64,000 nt of DNA from Candidatus Coprovivens sp. (GCA_051892935.1 JBJFGS010000024.1:32001-96000), one strand, 5' to 3'. Counted from the first letter of the stretch, positions 8,076 to 16,499 are shown. Notes: generated from the letters alone by a model not told the origin. A program made the numbers and translations.

Positions 8076-8363
8076 TTATAGATATTCCATTATTGCAACG
8101 TTTTTTTCTAGTTTAGCAACTAAGTCTTCTCGATCATATTTTGAAAATATTTCATCAAATGTTTCGTTATCTATTAAAAACATATTATAGAATTTAACAA
8201 AAGCTTCTACGTAATTAGTTACTCCTAATTCAAGTAGATACTTTATATTGTTAGTTACTACTTCTTCATTTTCATTTAGTTTTTCTACTGCAAGAGCAGG
8301 AATATTTTCACACATTAGATTGATAATTTCTTCATCAAACCCTAATTCTTTCAAATACATCAT
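8076..8363 (-). CDS. small hypothetical protein with mTERF-like helical repeats
   Basis: YLKELGF and NIKYLLELGV units; ATGA overlap with the upstream gene. Confidence 0.6.
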   Translation of the reverse strand: MMYLKELGFDEEIINLMCENIPALAVEKLNENEEVVTNNIKYLLELGVTNYVEAFVKFYNMFLIDNETFDEIFSKYDREDLVAKLEKNVAIMEYL

Positions 8364-10627
8364 AGTGTCATCCCTCCTAGTGTATTCGCTTTATTAAAAC
8401 CCAAGCAACTACCTACAACATTTCTTAATGTCTCTTCGTCTTGACGAAGGTTATATAATGCAGATGCTAGGATGATCTCTCTTTCAACACCTACAGTAGA
8501 TTGTTTACTTTGAGCTAGCGCATTTAAAACTATTATTAAGTTTCTTTCAAATTTATTCTTAGAAATACATATATTTCCTAGTTTATAAGTATATTTACCA
8601 ATTATTTCAGCGTGGTATTCTTGTTCCATAATTTGAACTAATCTATCAAATTCATCTTTCATTTCTGGTACAATTTCTTGACCAAGTACTGTTTTAATAT
8701 TTTTGTAGTTGTCTTCTAATGTATTTATTACTATTTCTGTGTAATCTTCATTACCGATTATACTTGGTAGCATACTATTTACTTCATTCATTGAAATTAT
8801 ACTTGGGAAGTTTTTAGTTGGACCATATTTTTTATAGAAATCTAAGTAGTATATTACATGTCTACAGAATTCTGTAGGGCCATTTCCTTCATATATTGGT
8901 TCTCCATGTTCTTCACAATATTTAACTCTCTTTATTAATTCGGTAGCACTAGTTCCAAGTATTTCTGGATTAGTCGCCATAATGTTTTCTAAGTCTGCCT
9001 CTATAATACTATCAATGTCTCTTAATAAATCTAAAGGTTTTTTCCAGAATACTGATAAAGCATATTTACCATTATTTTTAACAATTTTGATTAAATATTC
9101 TTTTAGTACTGATACATCTTCTTGAATATTGATATCTTCAAATAGTAGTAAATTATGGTTTCTTACTTCTTTTTCATCAAGTTCATAACCATTTGCCATT
9201 AATGTATCAATATTTTTTTCATATCTAGCAACATTTGCTTTTAATAAATATAATTGGCTTTCGTCAAATTTTTGATGAAGGCTTTCAATAGCAGATATTC
9301 TTTCTTCTAGTGTAGTTAGAGTTTCTCTTAAACCACTATTTGTATCTCTTATTAAGTCTTGAATTTTTAATTCAGATATACCTTTAGCTCTTAGTAGTGT
9401 TATTTTTTTATTTAATTCTTCATCAGCTAGATACATATGGTGTTTACGTAATTTATAAGCTTCTTCTTCTAAAGATATACTTCTTAAGATTTCATAGTTT
9501 TCTTCAATAACTCTTTTATCTACAGATGATAACATATTATATACTGTTTCAATATCTTCTGTATTATATTCCTTAAATTTATCAAGGTCTAATCCAATAC
9601 TTTCTAAGAATTGTAGAAATTCATCTTTTTCACTATTATTTTGAGTATTTAGTTCATATTCAGGAGTTGTTATAGTATCAGTTGTTGTTGCGGTATCTGA
9701 AGTTGTTTCTGGTTTAGTGTCAAATTCATCATTTTCCATGTTTAGTGCAGATAAATCTATAATTGTTGTTTTTTCATTATCACTATCTACTTTACTATAA
9801 ATGTCTTCTGTTACACTTTCGTTTTCTGATGGAGTTGGCTCTATTGTAATAACTGGTTCAATAATAGGAGTTGGTTCTTCTGGTTCAATGGCAAGTGTTG
9901 GCTCTTCCGGTTCAACATCTTCTGGAATAGGTTCTTCGTATTGTTGGTCTATTGGATTTACCAGTCCTTTTTCTAATCTTTCTTGGTAAGTTTGATTATA
10001 TTGATATAGCCCTTCATCTGGGAACATAATCAATTTAGTTAACTTACTTAATTCTGTTTCAGAGAAAATACCAAATGAAGAAAGCACTTTCTTAACATAA
10101 TGAGCTGTTAGTGAATCTCTTTCTATTTCATTTGGTGATAAACTTTGTTCTAATAAACTTACTAGTTGTTCTCTTTCCCATTCAGCTTTCTTTTGTTCTT
10201 CTTGTAGGCTAGCTAATTTAGTATCTAGTTCGTCTTTTCTTTTTTCAGCTTCTTCTATTTCTGTTTGGAAACCTTTTATTCGTTCATTTAGTTTTTCACA
10301 ATACTTTGGAGATCTGTCGCCTATAGCAGTCAGTAATGTTCCTATTTCTAGATTAATATCAATTTGACGAAGTGCTGAGAATGTATCGTCATTTAGGCCT
10401 TGAAAAGCTTCCTCAAAAGTTTGTTTTTGAGTTATAAATACTTCTAATGTACCTTCACTATCAATTTTATTTATCTCACTTTTAGTTCTATTATTCTCAG
10501 TTTCTTCAATGTCAGATTCCGTATTTCTTATTTCATTAGCTAATCCTTGTAAGATTACGTTATCATCACCTTTTAAATTATAAAGTCTATCTAATAATGT
10601 TTCTATATTTTGTGTTAATCCTGCCAC
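8360..10627 (-). CDS. large hypothetical protein: N-terminal coiled coil, Pro/Glu-rich linker, mTERF-like repeats
   Basis: Long ORF; likely GTG start at 10627 behind GAGGTG; EPEEPT repeats; NPEILGTSATELIKRVKYC motif. Confidence 0.6.
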   Translation of the reverse strand: MAGLTQNIETLLDRLYNLKGDDNVILQGLANEIRNTESDIEETENNRTKSEINKIDSEGTLEVFITQKQTFEEAFQGLNDDTFSALRQIDINLEIGTLLTAIGDRSPKYCEKLNERIKGFQTEIEEAEKRKDELDTKLASLQEEQKKAEWEREQLVSLLEQSLSPNEIERDSLTAHYVKKVLSSFGIFSETELSKLTKLIMFPDEGLYQYNQTYQERLEKGLVNPIDQQYEEPIPEDVEPEEPTLAIEPEEPTPIIEPVITIEPTPSENESVTEDIYSKVDSDNEKTTIIDLSALNMENDEFDTKPETTSDTATTTDTITTPEYELNTQNNSEKDEFLQFLESIGLDLDKFKEYNTEDIETVYNMLSSVDKRVIEENYEILRSISLEEEAYKLRKHHMYLADEELNKKITLLRAKGISELKIQDLIRDTNSGLRETLTTLEERISAIESLHQKFDESQLYLLKANVARYEKNIDTLMANGYELDEKEVRNHNLLLFEDINIQEDVSVLKEYLIKIVKNNGKYALSVFWKKPLDLLRDIDSIIEADLENIMATNPEILGTSATELIKRVKYCEEHGEPIYEGNGPTEFCRHVIYYLDFYKKYGPTKNFPSIISMNEVNSMLPSIIGNEDYTEIVINTLEDNYKNIKTVLGQEIVPEMKDEFDRLVQIMEQEYHAEIIGKYTYKLGNICISKNKFERNLIIVLNALAQSKQSTVGVEREIILASALYNLRQDEETLRNVVGSCLGFNKANTLGGMTL

Positions 10628-10776
10628 AATACACACCTCGCTTATTATGTATAAATTATAACAAAAAGAAAAGAAAGTGTAAATCTTTTTTAATATACTT
10701 GTTATTTCTTTATTTAAAGTAAGAGAACCAATAAATTGAATAATGAATATAATATTATGAAAGTAGGAGGGATTTT

Positions 10777-11376
10777 TTGAAAAAAATTATTATAATTATA
10801 GGATGTTTATTCTTAATAATATTTAGTATTTTTTCTTTTATTAATAAAGATAAAAGCGATGAATTAACTACTATTAAATTGGCTGAAGTAACTCATAGTA
10901 TATTTTATGCGCCGTTATATGTGGCATTGGAAAATGGTTATTTTAAAGAAGAAGGATTAAATATTGAATTAATATTAACTAGTGGAGCTGATAAAGTTAG
11001 TGCTGCTGTATTATCAAACACTGTAGATATAGGATTTGCTGGTCCAGAATCAGCAATATATGTATATAAGAACAAAGAAAAAGATTATCTTGTTACATTT
11101 GCAGGATTAACTAAAAGAGATGGACAATTTATTGTTGCTAGAGAAAAATATAAAAATTTTTCTGTTAATGATTTATATGGAAAAGAAATACTTGTTGGCC
11201 GTTCTTCTGGAATGCCTGCTCTAAACTTTTTTAATGGAGTTAAAAATGTTAGTGGAGATATTTCTAAAATAGATGTAAATACTAGTATAGATTTTGCTTC
11301 TTTATCGGGAACATTTATTGGTGGAGTTGGAGATTTTGTTAACTTATTTGATCTTAATGCAACTAAAAGAAAATAA
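10777..11376 (+). CDS. 5' part of split NitT/TauT-family (YtlA-like) ABC substrate-binding protein
   Basis: EVTHSIFYAPLYVA..GYFKEEGL..GMP..DF motifs. The family-like sequence stops at NLF (11349); the final DLNATKRK comes from the inserted element. Confidence 0.9.
   Translation: MKKIIIIIGCLFLIIFSIFSFINKDKSDELTTIKLAEVTHSIFYAPLYVALENGYFKEEGLNIELILTSGADKVSAAVLSNTVDIGFAGPESAIYVYKNKEKDYLVTFAGLTKRDGQFIVAREKYKNFSVNDLYGKEILVGRSSGMPALNFFNGVKNVSGDISKIDVNTSIDFASLSGTFIGGVGDFVNLFDLNATKRK
11335..11370. other. left att junction (crossover dinucleotide GA 11350-11351)
   Basis: ttatttGA|tcttaatgcaactaaa; the element-side arm is the reverse complement of the arm at the right junction. Confidence 0.85.
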
Positions 11377-11398
11377 AAAACTACTTAATAGTAGTTTT
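11377..11398. terminator. bidirectional terminator at the element's left end
   Basis: Hairpin aaaactact-taat-agtagtttt between the truncated SBP gene and the convergent WXG100 genes. Confidence 0.75.
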
Positions 11399-11723
11399 AT
11401 CCTTCATATTCTGATGTTAGTAAATCTTCAGCATTCTTTTTAATTGATGTATCAGCTTCTTCGTATTTTGTTGCTGTTGTTGATAAGAATGTTGCATACT
11501 TAGTAATTGAGTCATAAAAATCACCAAATTTTGCATATAAAGAATGGTATTTTTCTCTTAGCATATCTGCTGATTCACTTTTAAAAGAATCTTCTGTATT
11601 ACTCATTACTGTAGTAGCTTTATCTAAAGCCTGTTTCATAACATCAACTTTGTTTATCATAGCTTCAGATGCTTCTTTTAAACCTGTATATGATACTGAA
11701 ATATCCATTTGATTATTACTCAT
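11397..11723 (-). CDS. WXG100-like protein (degenerate WxG, YxxxD motif)
   Basis: 108-aa helical hairpin pattern; SFKSESA at the WxG position; KYEEAD near the C-terminus. Confidence 0.75.
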   Translation of the reverse strand: MSNNQMDISVSYTGLKEASEAMINKVDVMKQALDKATTVMSNTEDSFKSESADMLREKYHSLYAKFGDFYDSITKYATFLSTTATKYEEADTSIKKNAEDLLTSEYEG

Positions 11724-11739
11724 TTATATTACTCCTATT

Positions 11740-12030
11740 CTATAATCTTCCAGCTGCACTAGAAATATCTGTTTGTAAATCATTTAAACTTCCTGATGAA
11801 TTATTTAAGAAAATAGCATAATTGTTTACTACTTGCCCTAAAGCAACTATTTCTTCTTTGTAACTGTTTATTTTATTAGCAAATGCAACATTATCTGTAC
11901 CTTGCCATGAAGTAGTTAGATTATCAACAATTTTATATAATTCTGTTACAGCATTATTGTACTCAACGGCTGCATCGTTAATCTCCTTAGCTTCGTATTT
12001 CATTTGATCTAAATTAGCTTGTAAGTTCAT
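11740..12030 (-). CDS. WXG100 family type VII secretion substrate
   Basis: 96 aa; central SWQGTDNVAF motif; AGGAGG RBS. Confidence 0.85.
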   Translation of the reverse strand: MNLQANLDQMKYEAKEINDAAVEYNNAVTELYKIVDNLTTSWQGTDNVAFANKINSYKEEIVALGQVVNNYAIFLNNSSGSLNDLQTDISSAAGRL

Positions 12031-12077
12031 ATTATCCTCCTATAATATAGTCTTTTCTTCTTTTATTTTACATTTTT

Positions 12078-12106
12078 ATTATATTTCATATTTTGTGCTT
12101 CTTCAA
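12078..12106 (-). promoter_or_regulatory. sigma-A-like promoter for the WXG100 pair
   Basis: TTGAAG-17 bp-TATAAT on the minus strand upstream of 12030. Confidence 0.6.
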
Positions 12107-12144
12107 TAAAAGTTCCAAAAAATGTAAATTTATTTGACAAGATA

Positions 12145-12939
12145 TTATTTTTTTATACCAGAAGATTCCTTTAACCGCATTTGATTCCAAAGGGATTTAG
12201 GTAGTAATATAGCACTTAATTTAGCTGTATTTTGTTCTTCATTTATTTCAACTTTTATTATCTTAGAAAGACTACCACAATTTAAAATATATTCTAGTTG
12301 AGACTTAGAATAACTTAAAACATCTGAAAGAAGAATTGCTCCATCTTGGCATAGAGAAGGAACAAAATATTCTATTTCTATATTACAAGTATCATGCCAT
12401 TCTAAATCTTTTCTTCTAAAATAACTAGTATTTCTTAATAGAGATGTTGAAGTGAATCCTTGTTCATATATGTATTGTCCTTGCATTAATGATAGGTCTG
12501 ATATTGTAGTAATTCCATAATCATAAAAGGCTTTAATACTTATTCCTCTATATGATTTTATATTAATATTTAGTGAAGGAAACTTATCAATTATGTTTTT
12601 AATAGATTCTCCTAATTGTTGATAGTATTCTTTTTTCTCTGAAGTTAATAAACCATTTTCTTCGTAGTTCCATTTATTTCTCATAGTATTATTAATAAAT
12701 CTATATTCATAACCTGTATAAAAACGTAAATCACTTAGTTCTTTTAAGCTAAGACTGTCAATGTAGTCTCTGACTATTTCAAGAAATGTCTTGTTTATTT
12801 GTTCTACTGATGTAAATTCAACAAATTCTTCTTTTAATACTTGTTCTATATATGATGAGAGTTCTTGTACTTTTTCAGAACCTAAATTATTTAGTATATA
12901 TCTAGTAGAAAAGCTTGTACCTTTTTTATTTTTTATCAT
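12145..12939 (-). CDS. ADP-ribosyltransferase, VIP2/C3 exoenzyme-like (R-S-E class)
   Basis: FYTGYEYRFINNTMR helix; SYRG; GFTSTSL; SQLEYIL (QxE catalytic motif). No signal peptide. Confidence 0.85.
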   Translation of the reverse strand: MIKNKKGTSFSTRYILNNLGSEKVQELSSYIEQVLKEEFVEFTSVEQINKTFLEIVRDYIDSLSLKELSDLRFYTGYEYRFINNTMRNKWNYEENGLLTSEKKEYYQQLGESIKNIIDKFPSLNINIKSYRGISIKAFYDYGITTISDLSLMQGQYIYEQGFTSTSLLRNTSYFRRKDLEWHDTCNIEIEYFVPSLCQDGAILLSDVLSYSKSQLEYILNCGSLSKIIKVEINEEQNTAKLSAILLPKSLWNQMRLKESSGIKK

Positions 12940-12995
12940 ATAATCACCTACTATAAATAGTATATCAATTATTATTTATTTGTTGAAATAGTATG

Positions 12996-14384
12996 TTACT
13001 CTGATTCACTTTTTATTTTTCTTAAAGTGTATTTTATTTGATATTTTTTATTATGATTATCATATCTATTAAATATGAATATTTTGTTTTCTATTTGGTT
13101 TAGTAAACTATAATCTATATTTAAATATATAGTTAAATAGGCTGTTGATAATTCTTTAGTTAATAACACTTTATCTAGTATTAAAGGAATAATATTAACG
13201 TTAGGAATAGATATTTTTCTTTTATATAATGAAGATAATAGTTGAGATATCTGAGAATAGTTTATATCTATTTTTTTTATTATATATTGAAAAATTTTAT
13301 TTATTTCTGATTCTCTTATGTTTGTATAGCATTTGTTTCCTAATAGATGTTCTTTACATATCCAGGTTGTGTCTTTAGAGTTTTTTAATTGCTTTCTTCG
13401 ATGAAGATAGCAATTATGTTTAGTACATATTAATTTTTGAGTATATTGGTATTGTTTATGATAATTTGTATTGTCTTTTGTTTTTTTTAAGAGTTTATTA
13501 TTAGTTTCGTTCCAAAGAGATTCTTCTATAATAGGTGGAATGTGTTTATAGTCTTTATATATTTTCCATTTATTGGGATTTATTTTTTTTACTTTTTTTG
13601 TCATATAATCTTCTGTGTATGTTTTATTTCCACAGTAATATCCTTTATATTTAGGGTTTTTTAACATTCTAAGGATAGTTGAAGAACACCATTTTTTATT
13701 ATAGTTAGTAGTTATTCCTTGATTATTAAGATAGTCGCATATATATGGAATTGATTTATTTTCTATTGTGTACATAGTAAAGATTTTTCTTACAATAGTA
13801 GATTGTTTTTTGTTAATAGTCATTTTATTTTTGTTTTTTTTATATCCATATAATTTGTTATTTCCAAGGATTATTCCTTTTTGTATTGACATATTTACAC
13901 CGAATTTTACTCTTTCTGATAAACGGCGGATTTCATCTTGTGCAAGGCTTGACATTATTGTGAGTCTTAACTCACTATCTGAATATATTGTATTAATGTT
14001 ATCGTTTGTAAATAAAACTGCTACTCCATTGTTTAATAATTCTCTAGTATATTTAAGGCTATCTAAGGTATTTCTTGAAAAACGAGATATTTCTTTTGTA
14101 ATAATTAAATCAAATAAGTCTTTTTTTGAATCTGATATCATTTTTAGAAAGTTTGCTCTTTTTATTGATGTTGTACCTGATATGCCTTTGTCAATATAGC
14201 CTTTAACATATGTCCAATTAGGATTATTTTTTATTATAGATTGAAAATAATCTTCTTGGTTGGATAAAGATGTTTGTTGATCTTCATGATCTGTAGATAT
14301 TCTTCCGTAATATGTTACTCTTAAATTAAGATTGGATATTGGAATTCCTTGATTAAGTTGTTCTCTTATTTTATATAGATTCAT
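12996..14384 (-). CDS. large serine recombinase (integrase)
   Basis: YYGRISTD with catalytic Ser, DKGISGT, KEISRFSRN, recombinase domain (LKNPKYKG, HIPPII) and Cys/His Zn-ribbon region. Confidence 0.93.
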   Translation of the reverse strand: MNLYKIREQLNQGIPISNLNLRVTYYGRISTDHEDQQTSLSNQEDYFQSIIKNNPNWTYVKGYIDKGISGTTSIKRANFLKMISDSKKDLFDLIITKEISRFSRNTLDSLKYTRELLNNGVAVLFTNDNINTIYSDSELRLTIMSSLAQDEIRRLSERVKFGVNMSIQKGIILGNNKLYGYKKNKNKMTINKKQSTIVRKIFTMYTIENKSIPYICDYLNNQGITTNYNKKWCSSTILRMLKNPKYKGYYCGNKTYTEDYMTKKVKKINPNKWKIYKDYKHIPPIIEESLWNETNNKLLKKTKDNTNYHKQYQYTQKLICTKHNCYLHRRKQLKNSKDTTWICKEHLLGNKCYTNIRESEINKIFQYIIKKIDINYSQISQLLSSLYKRKISIPNVNIIPLILDKVLLTKELSTAYLTIYLNIDYSLLNQIENKIFIFNRYDNHNKKYQIKYTLRKIKSESE

Positions 14385-14518
14385 TATATTATTGTTAATT
14401 TATTTAAAAGATAGTTTTGGATATTTAAATATTCTTGATATGTTATTTCTTCTTTTTTATATAATTCTTCGTTTATAAGAAGAGATATTTTTATAATTAG
14501 TTGTTCTTTTTTTATAAT
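14384..14518 (-). CDS. small SHOCT-like ORF coupled to the recombinase (candidate directionality factor)
   Basis: AAAGGAG RBS, then an ATT/ATA start (an in-frame GTG at 14524 overlaps the RBS). IKKEQLIIKISLLINEELYKKEEITYQEYLNIQNYLLNKLTII; its stop overlaps the recombinase ATG (TAATG). Confidence 0.6.
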   Translation of the reverse strand: MIKKEQLIIKISLLINEELYKKEEITYQEYLNIQNYLLNKLTII

Positions 14519-14554
14519 TAACACTCCTTTATTTTAATAATATTATGTAATTTA

Positions 14555-14590
14555 TTTTTTATGCATTAAGTGAACCTAATGCTACTAAAT
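14555..14590. other. right att junction (crossover dinucleotide GA 14572-14573)
   Basis: atgcattaagtGA|acctaatgctactaaa; SBP coding sequence resumes exactly here. Confidence 0.85.
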
Positions 14591-14979
14591 TAGAAAAAGA
14601 AGGATATGGATATGTTGTAGGAAGTGTTGGAGAATTATCTGGAGAAATGCCTTATACAGCTTTTTATGCTAGAAAAAGTTATATAAACAATAATGAAGAT
14701 ATTATTAAAGGTTTTAATAATGCTATTAATAAAGGTTTAGATTTTGTTAGTAATAATTCTGATAAAGAAGTTGCTGAAGTTATTTTAAAACAGTTTCCTG
14801 ATACTTCATTAAATGATGTAGAAGCAATTGTTAAAAGATATAGGGATGCTGATAGTTGGCTTTTAAATACTACTATTACAGAGGAATCTTATAAAAATTT
14901 AGAAGATATAATGATTGATAATAATTTATTGGATAGTTATGTTTCATTTAGTGATTTAGTAATAGATTTTAATGAGTAA
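14572..14979 (+). CDS. 3' part of split ABC substrate-binding protein
   Basis: Reads EPNATKLEKEGYGYVVGSVGELSGEMPYTAF from 14572, in frame with the 14647 ORF. The reconstituted protein is 326 aa. Confidence 0.9.
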   Translation, partial: EPNATKLEKEGYGYVVGSVGELSGEMPYTAFYARKSYINNNEDIIKGFNNAINKGLDFVSNNSDKEVAEVILKQFPDTSLNDVEAIVKRYRDADSWLLNTTITEESYKNLEDIMIDNNLLDSYVSFSDLVIDFNE

Positions 14980-15721
14980 AATATTAGAAGTTAAAAATAT
15001 TGAAAAAAAGTTTAATACTATAAATGGTGAGATAGAAGCTATAAATAATATATCTTTAAATATTAATGAAGGAGAATTTGTTGCAATAGTTGGGACATCC
15101 GGTTGTGGTAAAAGTACTTTACTATCTATTATGGCTGGTTTAGAAAAATTTAGTGCGGGAGAGATTAATTATGAAATAGATAATCCAGTAATTGGATATA
15201 TGTTGCAAGAAGATGCTTTATTTGAACATCTAAAAATAAAGGACAATATATTATTAGGATTAAGAATTCAAAATAAATTAACTGAAGATAATAAAAAATA
15301 TGCTTTTGATTTATTAAAAAAGTATAACTTAGATAAGTTTAAAAACAAAAGACCAAGTGAACTTTCAGGAGGAATGAAACAAAGAGTTGCTTTAATAAGA
15401 ACATTAGCTATAAGACCAGATATTCTATTTTTAGATGAACCTTTTTCGGCATTAGATTTTAGTACTAGATTGTCAGTTTGTGATGATGTTTATAAAATAA
15501 TAAAAGATACTGGTATTACAACAATTATGGTAACGCACGATATTTCAGAAGCTGTAAGTGTAGCTGATAAAGTAATAGTTTTAAGTAAGGGTCCTTCTGT
15601 AGTGAAGAATATCTATAGTATACAATTGGACAATAAGGGATTACCTACACAAAATAGAAATGATACTAAGTTTAATTATTATAATGAATTAATATGGAAA
15701 GATTTAGATAACAATGAGTAA
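14972..15721 (+). CDS. NitT/TauT ABC transporter ATP-binding protein
   Basis: GTSGCGKST, LSGGMKQR, LDEPFSALD and VTHD motifs. Confidence 0.95.
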   Translation: MSKILEVKNIEKKFNTINGEIEAINNISLNINEGEFVAIVGTSGCGKSTLLSIMAGLEKFSAGEINYEIDNPVIGYMLQEDALFEHLKIKDNILLGLRIQNKLTEDNKKYAFDLLKKYNLDKFKNKRPSELSGGMKQRVALIRTLAIRPDILFLDEPFSALDFSTRLSVCDDVYKIIKDTGITTIMVTHDISEAVSVADKVIVLSKGPSVVKNIYSIQLDNKGLPTQNRNDTKFNYYNELIWKDLDNNE

Positions 15722-16499
15722 TGAACAAAGAAAGTTTATATTAAAGTATAAACTAAATAAATTTTTTATCATAATTACTCAAGTTTTAATTGTATTATCA
15801 TTTTTTCTTACGTGGGAGATTCTTAGTAGAAAAGGTATTATTAATTCTTTTATATTTAGTAGTCCTACTAAAGTAGTAAATACTATATGTGATTTATTTG
15901 TTAATAATAACTTATTAAGGCATATTTGGGTGAGTGTTTATGAGACTTTAATTGCTTTTGGTATAGGATTGTTACTTAGTGTAAGTATATCGATTATTCT
16001 TTATATGTTTAATAATTTATATAAAGTTTTAGATCCTTTCTTAACTTGTTTAAATTCTCTACCAAAAGTTGCTTTGGGACCGATGATTATTATTATAGCT
16101 GGAGCTAATATAAAAAGTATTATAGTTATGGCAGTTTTAATAAATGTTATTGTTAGTACAATAGTTATTACTAATGGATTTTATAATACTGATAAAATTA
16201 AACTAAAATTAATGAAATCTTTTAAAGCTAGTAAGTTTCAGATACTTAAATATTTGGTAATTCCTAGCAATTATAAAACTATTATTAGTTCGTTTAAACT
16301 AAGTATAAGTATGAGTATGATTGGAGTTATTACAGGAGAGTTTTTAGTTAGTCAAGAAGGTTTGGGTTATCTTATAATATATGGTACACAAGTATTTAAT
16401 TTAGATTTAGTAATAAGTGGTATTATACTTTTATTGATTATATCTTATATACTTTATAAGGTTGTAGAATATATAGAGAAAATATTATTAAGTTTATAA
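15714..16499 (+). CDS. NitT/TauT ABC transporter permease
   Basis: Multi-TM; SSP, LPKVALGP, GEF and GLGYLI motifs; overlaps the ATPase stop. Confidence 0.93.
   Translation: MSNEQRKFILKYKLNKFFIIITQVLIVLSFFLTWEILSRKGIINSFIFSSPTKVVNTICDLFVNNNLLRHIWVSVYETLIAFGIGLLLSVSISIILYMFNNLYKVLDPFLTCLNSLPKVALGPMIIIIAGANIKSIIVMAVLINVIVSTIVITNGFYNTDKIKLKLMKSFKASKFQILKYLVIPSNYKTIISSFKLSISMSMIGVITGEFLVSQEGLGYLIIYGTQVFNLDLVISGIILLLIISYILYKVVEYIEKILLSL

Follow-up and report, generated by a model that had tools for sequence, protein, structure and literature searches.

The gene for an ABC substrate-binding protein in Candidatus Coprovivens sp. is split by a 3,222-bp element that carries a serine recombinase gene, and exact removal of this element in silico restores the reading frame. 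The element is located in a stretch of 64,000 nucleotides, here termed the window, which corresponds to positions 32001-96000 of contig C24 in the draft assembly G000 (53 contigs, 92% complete, 3% contamination); coordinates refer to the window unless another contig is named. The comparisons described below suggest, with a rough probability of 0.6, that the element is an active, precisely excising gene-intervening cassette of the skin, gin, and SCC kind, the excision of which would still occur and matter to the cell.

Interrupted Gene and Junction Geometry

The gene halves, crossover dinucleotides, and element ends are located as follows.

10777..11349, plus strand: 5' part of the ABC substrate-binding protein gene, residues 1-191, NMT1/SsuA-like (open reading frame call; Pfam PF09084 NMT1, 2.2e-13; junction alignment)
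11350..11351: GA crossover dinucleotide at attL, shared with the other junction and centre of the dyad
11352..11380: left end of the element, P' arm of attP, in inverted repeat I1 and resembling the host B' arm
14543..14571: right end of the element, P arm of attP, in inverted repeat I1
14572..14573: GA crossover dinucleotide at attR (junction sequence comparison)
14572..14979, plus strand: 3' part of the binding-protein gene, residues 192-326, in which the frame restarts as EPNATKLEKEGYG (joined frame and ortholog alignment)

It can be observed that the open frame at 10777-11376 on the plus strand resembles its orthologs as far as ...GGVGDFVNLF at 11349 and then continues with eight foreign codons, DLNATKRK, and a stop. 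Five genes, all on the minus strand, lie between the two halves, and the G+C content of this insert is indistinguishable from that of its surroundings (22-30%). Joining the halves at GA in silico removes 3,222 bp and yields a frame of 326 amino acids without a stop, that is, the insert lies within a coding frame which its exact removal restores, as is characteristic of a gene-intervening element. The joined product is 66-79% identical to 12 intact orthologs, with no gap within 30 columns on either side of the junction, which falls inside the conserved motif GDFVNLF-EPNA (the hyphen marks the junction). The break at 11349, the restart at 14572, the GA crossover, and the sizes of element and protein, all proposed in the initial annotation, were thus reproduced by the open reading frames, the joined frame, and the alignment with 12 orthologs. 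An intact ortholog scored 53.9 bits against TIGR01728 (SsuA_fam), under the cut-off of 163.5.

The only contiguous bases common to both junctions in this genome are T-GA (11349-11351 and 14571-14573). When the element ends are joined, the sequence TGCATTAAG-T-GA-T-CTTAATGCA is obtained, forming a dyad around GA; it is the same sequence that had been described initially as a near-perfect dyad around a 2-bp core. The end pair, 11353-11380 with 14543-14570 (28 nucleotides, 75% complementary), is moreover the top inverted repeat in the region 11250-14680. An imperfect dyad around a 2-bp crossover, accompanied by a different attB, is the geometry of attachment (att) sites of large serine recombinases, in agreement with the class assigned at the outset, and the GA crossover is that of TnpX/TndX-type transposases. 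Counting from GA, 15 of the first 18 bases of the left end are identical to the displaced host sequence. The host frame runs on into the left end, 11350-11376, where the codons closely imitate those that were displaced (D-L-N-A-T-K versus E-P-N-A-T-K), so the P' and B' half-sites are almost one sequence.

The same junctions were found in the assemblies of eight other species, in which host ...ttattt is followed by GA and (A/T)C(T/A)TA... at one end, and ...TAAG(A/T) by GA and host acc(t/a)aatgc at the other. The joined ends of every element in the genus read ...TAAG(A/T)-GA-(A/T)C(T/A)TA..., and the host flanks abut directly in the six intact orthologs inspected. Because it recurs in eight other species' assemblies, the geometry of the element is more than chance. 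Both junctions in the window are contained within one long contig (the longest contig in the cluster table has 151,180 bases), and since independent assemblies display the same arrangement, misassembly is unlikely.

Recurrence of the Element at One Codon

The genus was represented by 27 genomes, the window's own included, and 21 of these yielded the binding-protein gene. Insertion after the same phenylalanine codon was observed in nine (G000, G003, G004, G005, G007, G010, G012, G014, and G042), and the gene was intact in the remaining 12, with open frames of 328-354 amino acids. Interrupted and intact alleles, the comparison of which the initial annotation had proposed, were thus both recovered. 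In three relatives outside the genus (44-46% identity) the gene was intact. A related recombinase, 50-79% identical, adjoins the 3' half in eight of the nine occupied genomes; in G007, a PfkB kinase gene is located between the recombinase and the 3' half. The elements measure 2,955, 3,222, 4,432, 5,954, 8,528, 16,141, 16,810, and 20,252 bp, and that of G014 is spread over two contigs. The 5' half in G042 is found on contigs C17 and C67 (L024), with residues 2-157 and two TAA codons in one match and residues 143-191 in the other, a distribution that may reflect a break in the assembly, a variant form, or yet another interruption.

The distribution was examined more widely in a collection of 5.8 billion proteins. 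Among the 120 best clusters, 64 were truncated (193-250 amino acids), 55 had at least 300 amino acids, and one was in between. In 63 of the 64 truncated clusters, the junction motif was present and led into a short foreign tail, which started with E (49) or D (14), that is, with GA and a variable base. Such starts fit GA as the only obligatory shared bases, which explains why GA is shared here and GAAC in most others. The truncated allele P0132 (198 amino acids) is 100% identical over 195 amino acids to the intact P0133 (329 amino acids), implying gain or loss on short time scales somewhere in the group. Outside these assemblies, two metagenome contigs with recombinases of 61-64% identity display the same neighborhood of small open reading frame (ORF), 3' gene half, and ATPase gene; at 45-51% identity, four contigs are without that neighborhood and one is too short to tell.

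In an RpoB tree of 23 genomes, from which G010, G042, and G006 are absent for want of an RpoB match, G000, G004, and G003 constitute a starred clade in which all members are occupied. G014, G012, and G005 are grouped, the intact G008 being nested within the group, and G007 is placed separately. The occupied or intact state requires at least four changes among the 18 scored rows.

Recombinase and Coupled Small ORF

The recombinase gene and a small ORF adjoin each other in the element.

12996..14384, minus strand: large serine recombinase, 462 amino acids, without the coiled-coil motif (PF00239, 5.9e-27; PF07508, 3.8e-21; 3g13 catalytic domain, 2.5e-37; fold matches)
14384..14524, minus strand: 46-amino-acid ORF, candidate cofactor or directionality factor, the TAA of which overlaps the recombinase ATG (TAATG); kept in nine of nine elements; complex model

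The resolvase catalytic domain of the recombinase scored 95 bits against PF00239 (cut-off 23.3) and its recombinase domain (DBD1) 75.7 bits against PF07508 (cut-off 21.1). For the catalytic domain, the nearest entry is 3g13 from C. difficile, titled "putative conjugative transposon recombinase" (2.5e-37), and the whole chain matches solved serine integrases in Foldseek with a best E of 3.4e-17. In an alignment of the window enzyme with 16 relatives, Arg28, the catalytic Ser30, and the zinc-domain cysteines C320, C343, and C352 are invariant in all 17. PF13408, the zinc ribbon (DBD2), is reported for longer relatives and unreported for the window enzyme, the predicted model of which has beta strands there.

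The coiled-coil motif controls direction in textbook large serine recombinases. About 88 alignment columns of this motif are empty in the window enzyme and filled in the enzymes of G012, G010, G005, G042, and P0106 (540-580 amino acids); in the AlphaFold model (mean predicted local distance difference test score, pLDDT, 75) only helices 358-372 and 376-387 occupy the region. The motif is absent from 12 of the 17 aligned recombinases, with at least two changes on the tree, and the forms without it are themselves conserved. According to the available portions of the reports, removal of the coiled coil abolishes directional bias; LI integrase then retained about 2% activity in each direction, and phiC31 integrase was inactive (PMC10754689; PMC5499577). 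A second large serine recombinase gene is found elsewhere in the genome (G000:C31:121530-122498), 29% identical and within an open frame of 649 amino acids.

An ORF of 36-50 amino acids lies directly upstream of the recombinase gene in nine of nine elements, including those of G007 and G042, which have genes between the recombinase and the element end. In eight of the nine, the stop codon of this ORF either overlaps the recombinase start or lies immediately next to it. The recombinase and this coupled upstream ORF are the constant core of the family. Pairwise ratios of nonsynonymous to synonymous substitution rates (dN/dS) of the ORF are 0.30-0.63. Its profile retrieved 168 representative small proteins at E<=1e-3 and five at E<=1e-10; there was no Pfam match at E<=0.01, and the best Atlas score was 0.77, to unnamed clusters. 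A model of its product in complex with the recombinase scored 0.71 (runs 0.71, 0.71, and 0.69) versus 0.00 for the best of three controls, which shows likeness rather than proof of binding, since solved integrase-factor complexes exist. The mark applied to such models is reached by 58 of 80 solved complexes and two of 110 mismatched pairs. The runs had at least 90% of contacts in common and a partner pLDDT of at least 78, and the modeled contacts are on recombinase residues 372-402, 422-427, and 456-459, at the junction of zinc domain and coiled coil. Known directionality factors bind at this DBD2-coiled-coil junction, as stated in the available text of PMC12286644. The product of the small ORF is a candidate directionality factor, and the weight that the initial annotation gave to the small ORF is upheld by its retention in nine of nine elements, its coupling to the recombinase start, and its modeled binding.

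Two further ideas concerning the small ORF were rejected. That it supplies the missing coiled coil in trans was discarded on homology, since hhalign of its alignment against 16 long-form recombinases gave a probability of 0.13%, and a CATA-type -10 sequence seen by eye upstream of it in some elements is too weak as a sporulation promoter in A+T-rich DNA.

Selection and Divergence

Downstream of the split gene, the operon continues with two intact transporter genes.

14972..15721, plus strand: ABC ATPase of the same operon, intact here, the start of which overlaps the end of the binding-protein gene (PF00005; dN/dS 0.10-0.15)
15714..16499, plus strand: ABC permease of the same operon, intact (PF00528; dN/dS 0.15-0.19)

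All 20 frames joined in silico were free of stop codons. For the binding protein, dN/dS was 0.11-0.24 in nine occupied-occupied pairs, 0.05-0.35 in five intact-intact pairs, and 0.14 in two occupied-intact pairs of the same clade. Within the occupied clade of G000, G004, and G003, values of 0.10-0.15 for the ATPase and 0.15-0.19 for the permease were obtained; for the recombinase they were 0.12-0.22 in this clade and 0.28-0.48 in the other. These ratios indicate that the split halves, the downstream transporter genes, and the recombinase are under purifying selection, which, having persisted during species divergence, suggests that excision continues and matters to the cell.

Synonymous divergence (dS) of the recombinase was 0.63-0.90 in the G012 group and 1.12-1.48 in the G000 group. 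In the same pairs it was 0.62-1.07 for the binding protein, 0.83-1.67 for the ATPase, and 0.55-0.85 for the permease, the recombinase being close to these or somewhat above. The recombinase groupings also agree with the RpoB tree, G000, G004, and G003 forming the starred clade and G012, G005, and G014 falling together. Selection and divergence together display the pattern that long residence with occasional loss would give, and speak against both a recent sweep and a decaying insert.

Cargo and Neighboring Features

The left part of the element comprises three cargo genes and a hairpin.

11377..11398, both strands: hairpin of 9 bp with U-runs on both strands, likely two-way terminator (folding: plus, -8.4 kcal/mol, z -4.2; minus, -9.4 kcal/mol, z -2.2)
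11397..11723, minus strand: WXG100-like gene, 108 amino acids (PF06013, 26.7 bits, just under the 27.3 cut-off; NF035934, 60.2 bits, under 100)
11740..12030, minus strand: WXG100 gene, 96 amino acids (PF06013, 33.1 bits, above the 27.3 cut-off)
12145..12939, minus strand: ADP-ribosyltransferase exoenzyme-like gene, 264 amino acids (PF03496, 47.5 bits versus a cut-off of 23.4; sole PF03496 match in the genome)

The ADP-ribosyltransferase contains YRG, STS, and QLE, and R131, S164, and E216 are invariant in the alignment; the R, S-T-S, and (Q/E)-x-E motifs are what we take to be the catalytic residues of PF03496 exoenzymes. The last motif is Q-x-E in G000 and G004 and E-x-E in G003, G007, and G012 (the window gene and loci L013, L018, L019, and L014), a difference that goes with different target residues. 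These proteins evolve fast (43-70% identity, dN/dS 0.23-0.50), and no match to the window sequence was obtained in PDB at E<=0.01. They occur in six of the eight fully assembled elements (G000, G003, G004, G007, G010, and G012), in G012 as the C-terminus of a 1,343-amino-acid protein adjoining WXG100 genes. In the genome of the window, two EssC genes exceed the curated cut-off, and the WXG100 profile has 12 matches; the EssC-type type VII secretion ATPase genes are located at G000:C24:144217-148080, on the window's contig, and at C14:40900-44802. It is plausible from these domain matches that the ADP-ribosyltransferase and the two WXG100 products are substrates or partners of the host type VII secretion systems. 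No immunity-like ORF was evident in an ORF scan of the 3.2-kb element.

Cargo of the other elements includes a xanthine/uracil permease, PfkB kinase, nucleoside phosphorylase, MFS transporter, aminotransferase-GNAT fusion, and radical SAM enzyme, and, further in the family, ABC-2 exporters, TIR, PD-(D/E)XK, and SPFH proteins, RhuM, an MBOAT gene, and dlt-like genes. In the 16-kb element of G010 (L015), the cargo looks defensive, with two TIR/zinc-ribbon/SH3 proteins alongside a PD-(D/E)XK nuclease and an SPFH protein. A Pfam scan of 37 cargo proteins in the elements scanned found no phage, replication, conjugation, or packaging domain, in agreement with the absence of replication, conjugation, and phage genes noted initially. 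The further description of a minimal, host-retained element stands insofar as phage genes are lacking; it does not extend to an element that bears an ADP-ribosyltransferase and two WXG100 genes and belongs to a genus-wide family with very variable cargo. In this respect, SCC or gin islands are a better comparison for the element than a remnant retained purely by the host.

The hairpin at 11377-11398 is placed behind the truncated binding-protein frame and behind the WXG genes. A consensus terminator scan, which demands at least three G-C pairs, returned no sites, this hairpin included, and a promoter scan was uninformative (42 sites versus 37.2 +/- 5.7 in shuffles). Upstream of the operon, a gene of 758 amino acids (8360-10636, minus strand) without a Pfam or NCBIfam match is syntenic across the genus and fast-evolving (28-60% identity, tblastn).

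A second, unrelated family of large-serine-recombinase elements has the ATPase gene of this operon as its target and interrupts it at residue 140, immediately behind ...SGGMKQRV(A/G). This family was found in six other species (G005, G006, G010, G012, G018, and G042), with sizes of 5.4-8.2 kb where both ends were found; the loci include L067 (G018), L068 (G012), L069 (G005), and L070 (G010), and the homologous point in the window is approximately 15391/15392. The cargo includes a Fic/RhuM protein and an M60-like peptidase of 1,753 amino acids.

Competing Explanations

Several observations weigh against an active cassette. RpoB dS is 0.32-0.55, below that of the recombinase, which leaves strict co-divergence short of proof; at 0.6-1.5, dS is also near saturation in a genome of 25% G+C, and the related genomes are not independent. 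In a polymorphic population, gene flow from empty alleles could maintain the halves with no benefit to the host. The recombinase is without a coiled coil, deletion of which left LI integrase about 2% active and phiC31 integrase inactive in the available text of PMC10754689. The target is not a known sporulation gene. The two clusters nearest to the window allele (100% and 98%) are both truncated, and the nearest intact one is 84% identical, in a comparison of few sequences. In G005, G010, G012, and G042, the binding-protein and ATPase genes are both split, so two excisions would be needed to restore the operon. Solved complexes of integrases with directionality factors exist (9dxd, 9tep), and the complex score may partly reflect likeness to them.

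The explanation that competes best is possible, if on the unlikely side: an ordinary selfish integrative island which uses a conserved stretch of gene as landing site and enters and leaves the population, its transfer being assisted by phage, plasmid, or DNA uptake, with no gain to the host and no timed excision, the halves being kept healthy by empty alleles. The highly variable, accessory-looking cargo, with ADP-ribosyltransferases in six of eight fully assembled elements, agrees with such an island, as do the patchy occupancy (at least four changes among 18 scored RpoB-tree rows) and the identical split and intact allele pair. The second recombinase family in the adjacent ATPase gene, at a highly conserved motif in six species, also fits the idea that conserved sequence is a good landing site, and the available text of PMC4430133 states that TndX likewise targets a conserved coding domain at GA. 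However, no transfer, replication, or packaging gene is present in any element scanned, and the divergence of the recombinase tracks that of the host rather than being much lower, as recent spread would give. Furthermore, the nearest relatives of the window allele are all occupied, and the smallest elements, at 3.0-3.2 kb, leave little room for selfish functions.

A fixed, dead insertion, in which excision was lost, for instance through loss of the coiled coil, and the transporter became a pseudogene in the lineage, is improbable. The missing coiled-coil motif and the lack of an intact allele at the species level in the cluster survey would be accounted for; yet no stop or frameshift occurs in the halves, ATPase, permease, recombinase, or small ORF, here or in other occupied species, and dN/dS is far below 1 for all of these genes over dS of 0.6-1.5. 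The invariance of Ser30, Arg28, and the zinc-domain cysteines in 17 of 17 recombinases argues in the same direction, as does the fact that the forms without the coiled coil, 12 of 17, are themselves conserved. An assembly or binning artefact joining unrelated DNA has a negligible chance of being correct, for although the genome is a draft of 53 contigs with 92% completeness and 3% contamination, one long contig holds both junctions, and eight other assemblies and two metagenome contigs have the same architecture.

Proposed Mechanism and Host Context

For the actively excising cassette that is preferred here, the following course is proposed. The cassette would enter by attP x attB recombination at GA within the GDFVNLF-EPNA codons of the binding-protein gene. 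In the integrated state, the gene would yield a stump of 199 amino acids, and the hairpin terminator at the left end probably halts read-through. The binding-protein gene is a single copy in the genome; because the hairpin at 11377-11398 would end its transcription inside the element, the transporter, present as a sole copy, should be off while the cassette is integrated. The recombinase, probably with the small protein bound at the stump between zinc domain and coiled coil, would then recombine attL x attR at GA, releasing a 3,222-bp circle and restoring the 326-amino-acid frame exactly. Excision may take place in a terminal cell type, namely the mother cell of sporulation, which is the setting for skin, SPbeta, and gin; alternatively, a portion of the growing cells may carry it out. 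The two settings are about equally likely. The sequences themselves show the anatomy, the exact restoration in silico, the recurrence of the family at one site, the selection, and one identical pair of split and intact alleles; we infer that excision takes place at present and when it does so, that the insertion is polar, and how the small protein contributes.

Regarding the first setting, SpoIVA is present in the genome of the window (609.6 bits versus a cut-off of 459.9). Full-length sigma-K-like and sigma-E-like matches scored 283 and 240 bits, under the cut-off of 298.65, and a full-length Spo0A-like match, at 115 bits, was below its cut-off. The organism is probably a spore former, to judge from these matches. 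SpoIVA was found in 19 of the 27 genomes of the genus. The genomes without the binding-protein gene (G011, G015, G016, G020, G021, and G041) are all among the eight without a SpoIVA match; they are close kin and some are incomplete. This co-absence could reflect either a sporulation-linked role of the transporter or merely shared ancestry. The likeness to skin drawn in the initial annotation gains some ground from SpoIVA above its cut-off and the full-length sigma-K/E-like factors; it does not hold with respect to the target, which has no known sporulation role, or to phage genes, of which there are none. The regulated genetic switch proposed there for the transporter operon is what we infer, by comparison, from purifying selection and host-tracking divergence.

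A broader and tentative proposal, which we regard as unlikely as a whole, is that the recombinase without coiled coil and its partner of 36-50 amino acids constitute a natural minimal module, the direction or timing of which would be set by the small protein alone instead of by the customary coiled-coil lock. Together with the second recombinase family, it would serve a spore-forming genus of uncultured Bacilli by keeping the operon split in the germ line, to be rebuilt only in a chosen cell type or state, with the cassette also carrying interchangeable type VII toxin cargo.

Comparison with Known Systems and Significance

Gene-intervening elements with which a serine recombinase rebuilds the gene are known mainly from cultured Bacillus and Clostridioides species, in which they are of prophage size and interrupt sporulation genes. 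Among the matches listed in the literature on gene-intervening serine recombinases and active lysogeny, supplementary tables not being covered, no description of the present element was found. The novel aspects are its small size, the transporter target, the genus-wide spread, the recombinase without coiled coil but with a conserved small partner, and the toxin cargo.

The closest parallel is gin in gerE of Bacillus cereus ATCC 10987, a non-prophage gene-intervening island with a serine recombinase and a small factor (GirC and GirX). As described in the available portion of PMC5595907, it shares dyad att sites with a central dinucleotide, strain-variable cargo, the absence of transfer genes, and a frame rebuilt by excision. 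It differs in having 31 genes and three recombinases, in splitting a sporulation regulator, and in that excision was shown experimentally (PMC5595907); the window element has five genes, one recombinase lacking the coiled coil, and a transporter target, with excision predicted from sequence. In skin (sigK) and SPbeta (spsM) of Bacillus subtilis and skin of Clostridioides difficile, a large serine recombinase likewise rebuilds a gene by precise excision, a small directionality factor controls excision, and the host forms spores, according to the available parts of PMC4191935, PMC5499854, and PMC5025042, whereas only a candidate factor can be named for the window element. The former are prophages or remnants of tens of kilobases in mother-cell genes; the latter is 3.2 kb long, without phage genes, in a target with no known sporulation role.

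The window element resembles the staphylococcal cassette chromosome (SCC), the element of the Ccr recombinases, in being a large-serine-recombinase cassette that is devoid of transfer genes, always occupies the same chromosomal site, and differs greatly in cargo. The insertion of SCC takes place at the end of rlmH and leaves that gene undamaged, in contrast with the present element, which cuts mid-gene. Ccr enzymes act in both directions without a directionality factor, as mentioned in the available text of PMC5595907. CcrC and CcrB are the best NCBIfam matches of the window recombinase (87.8 and 80.7 bits versus cut-offs of 900; a third Ccr model, 48.6 versus 700), and as these scores are far under the cut-offs, the enzyme is not a Ccr. 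TndX (Tn5397) and TnpX (Tn4451) are also large serine recombinases, with a central GA in the target and a preference for a conserved coding domain; in the portions available, both are described as naturally two-way without accessory proteins, and TndX as using a central GA (PMC2475636, PMC4430133). These transposons differ in their conjugation or mobilization functions, and TnpX has a predicted coiled coil. Neither DUF4368 (PF14287) nor transfer genes were found in the window element by Pfam scan; DUF4368 is present in the recombinase of the ATPase-splitting element of G018. Finally, the fdxN element of heterocyst-forming cyanobacteria resembles the present case in being cut out of a gene by a serine recombinase, XisF, in cells that differentiate terminally, and differs in phylum and target gene; the XisF model of NCBIfam matched weakly (68.5 bits versus a cut-off of 375).

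As described above, a cassette of five genes displays gene-intervening geometry in a transporter gene, across an uncultured genus and in more than half of the related protein clusters examined, and the evolutionary signatures point to continued use of the interrupted gene. A recombinase naturally without a coiled coil, a tiny conserved partner, and fully defined att sites of approximately 50 bp could help in understanding and engineering the control of direction. The family also links gene-intervening cassettes to the spread of ADP-ribosyltransferase and WXG100 cargo.

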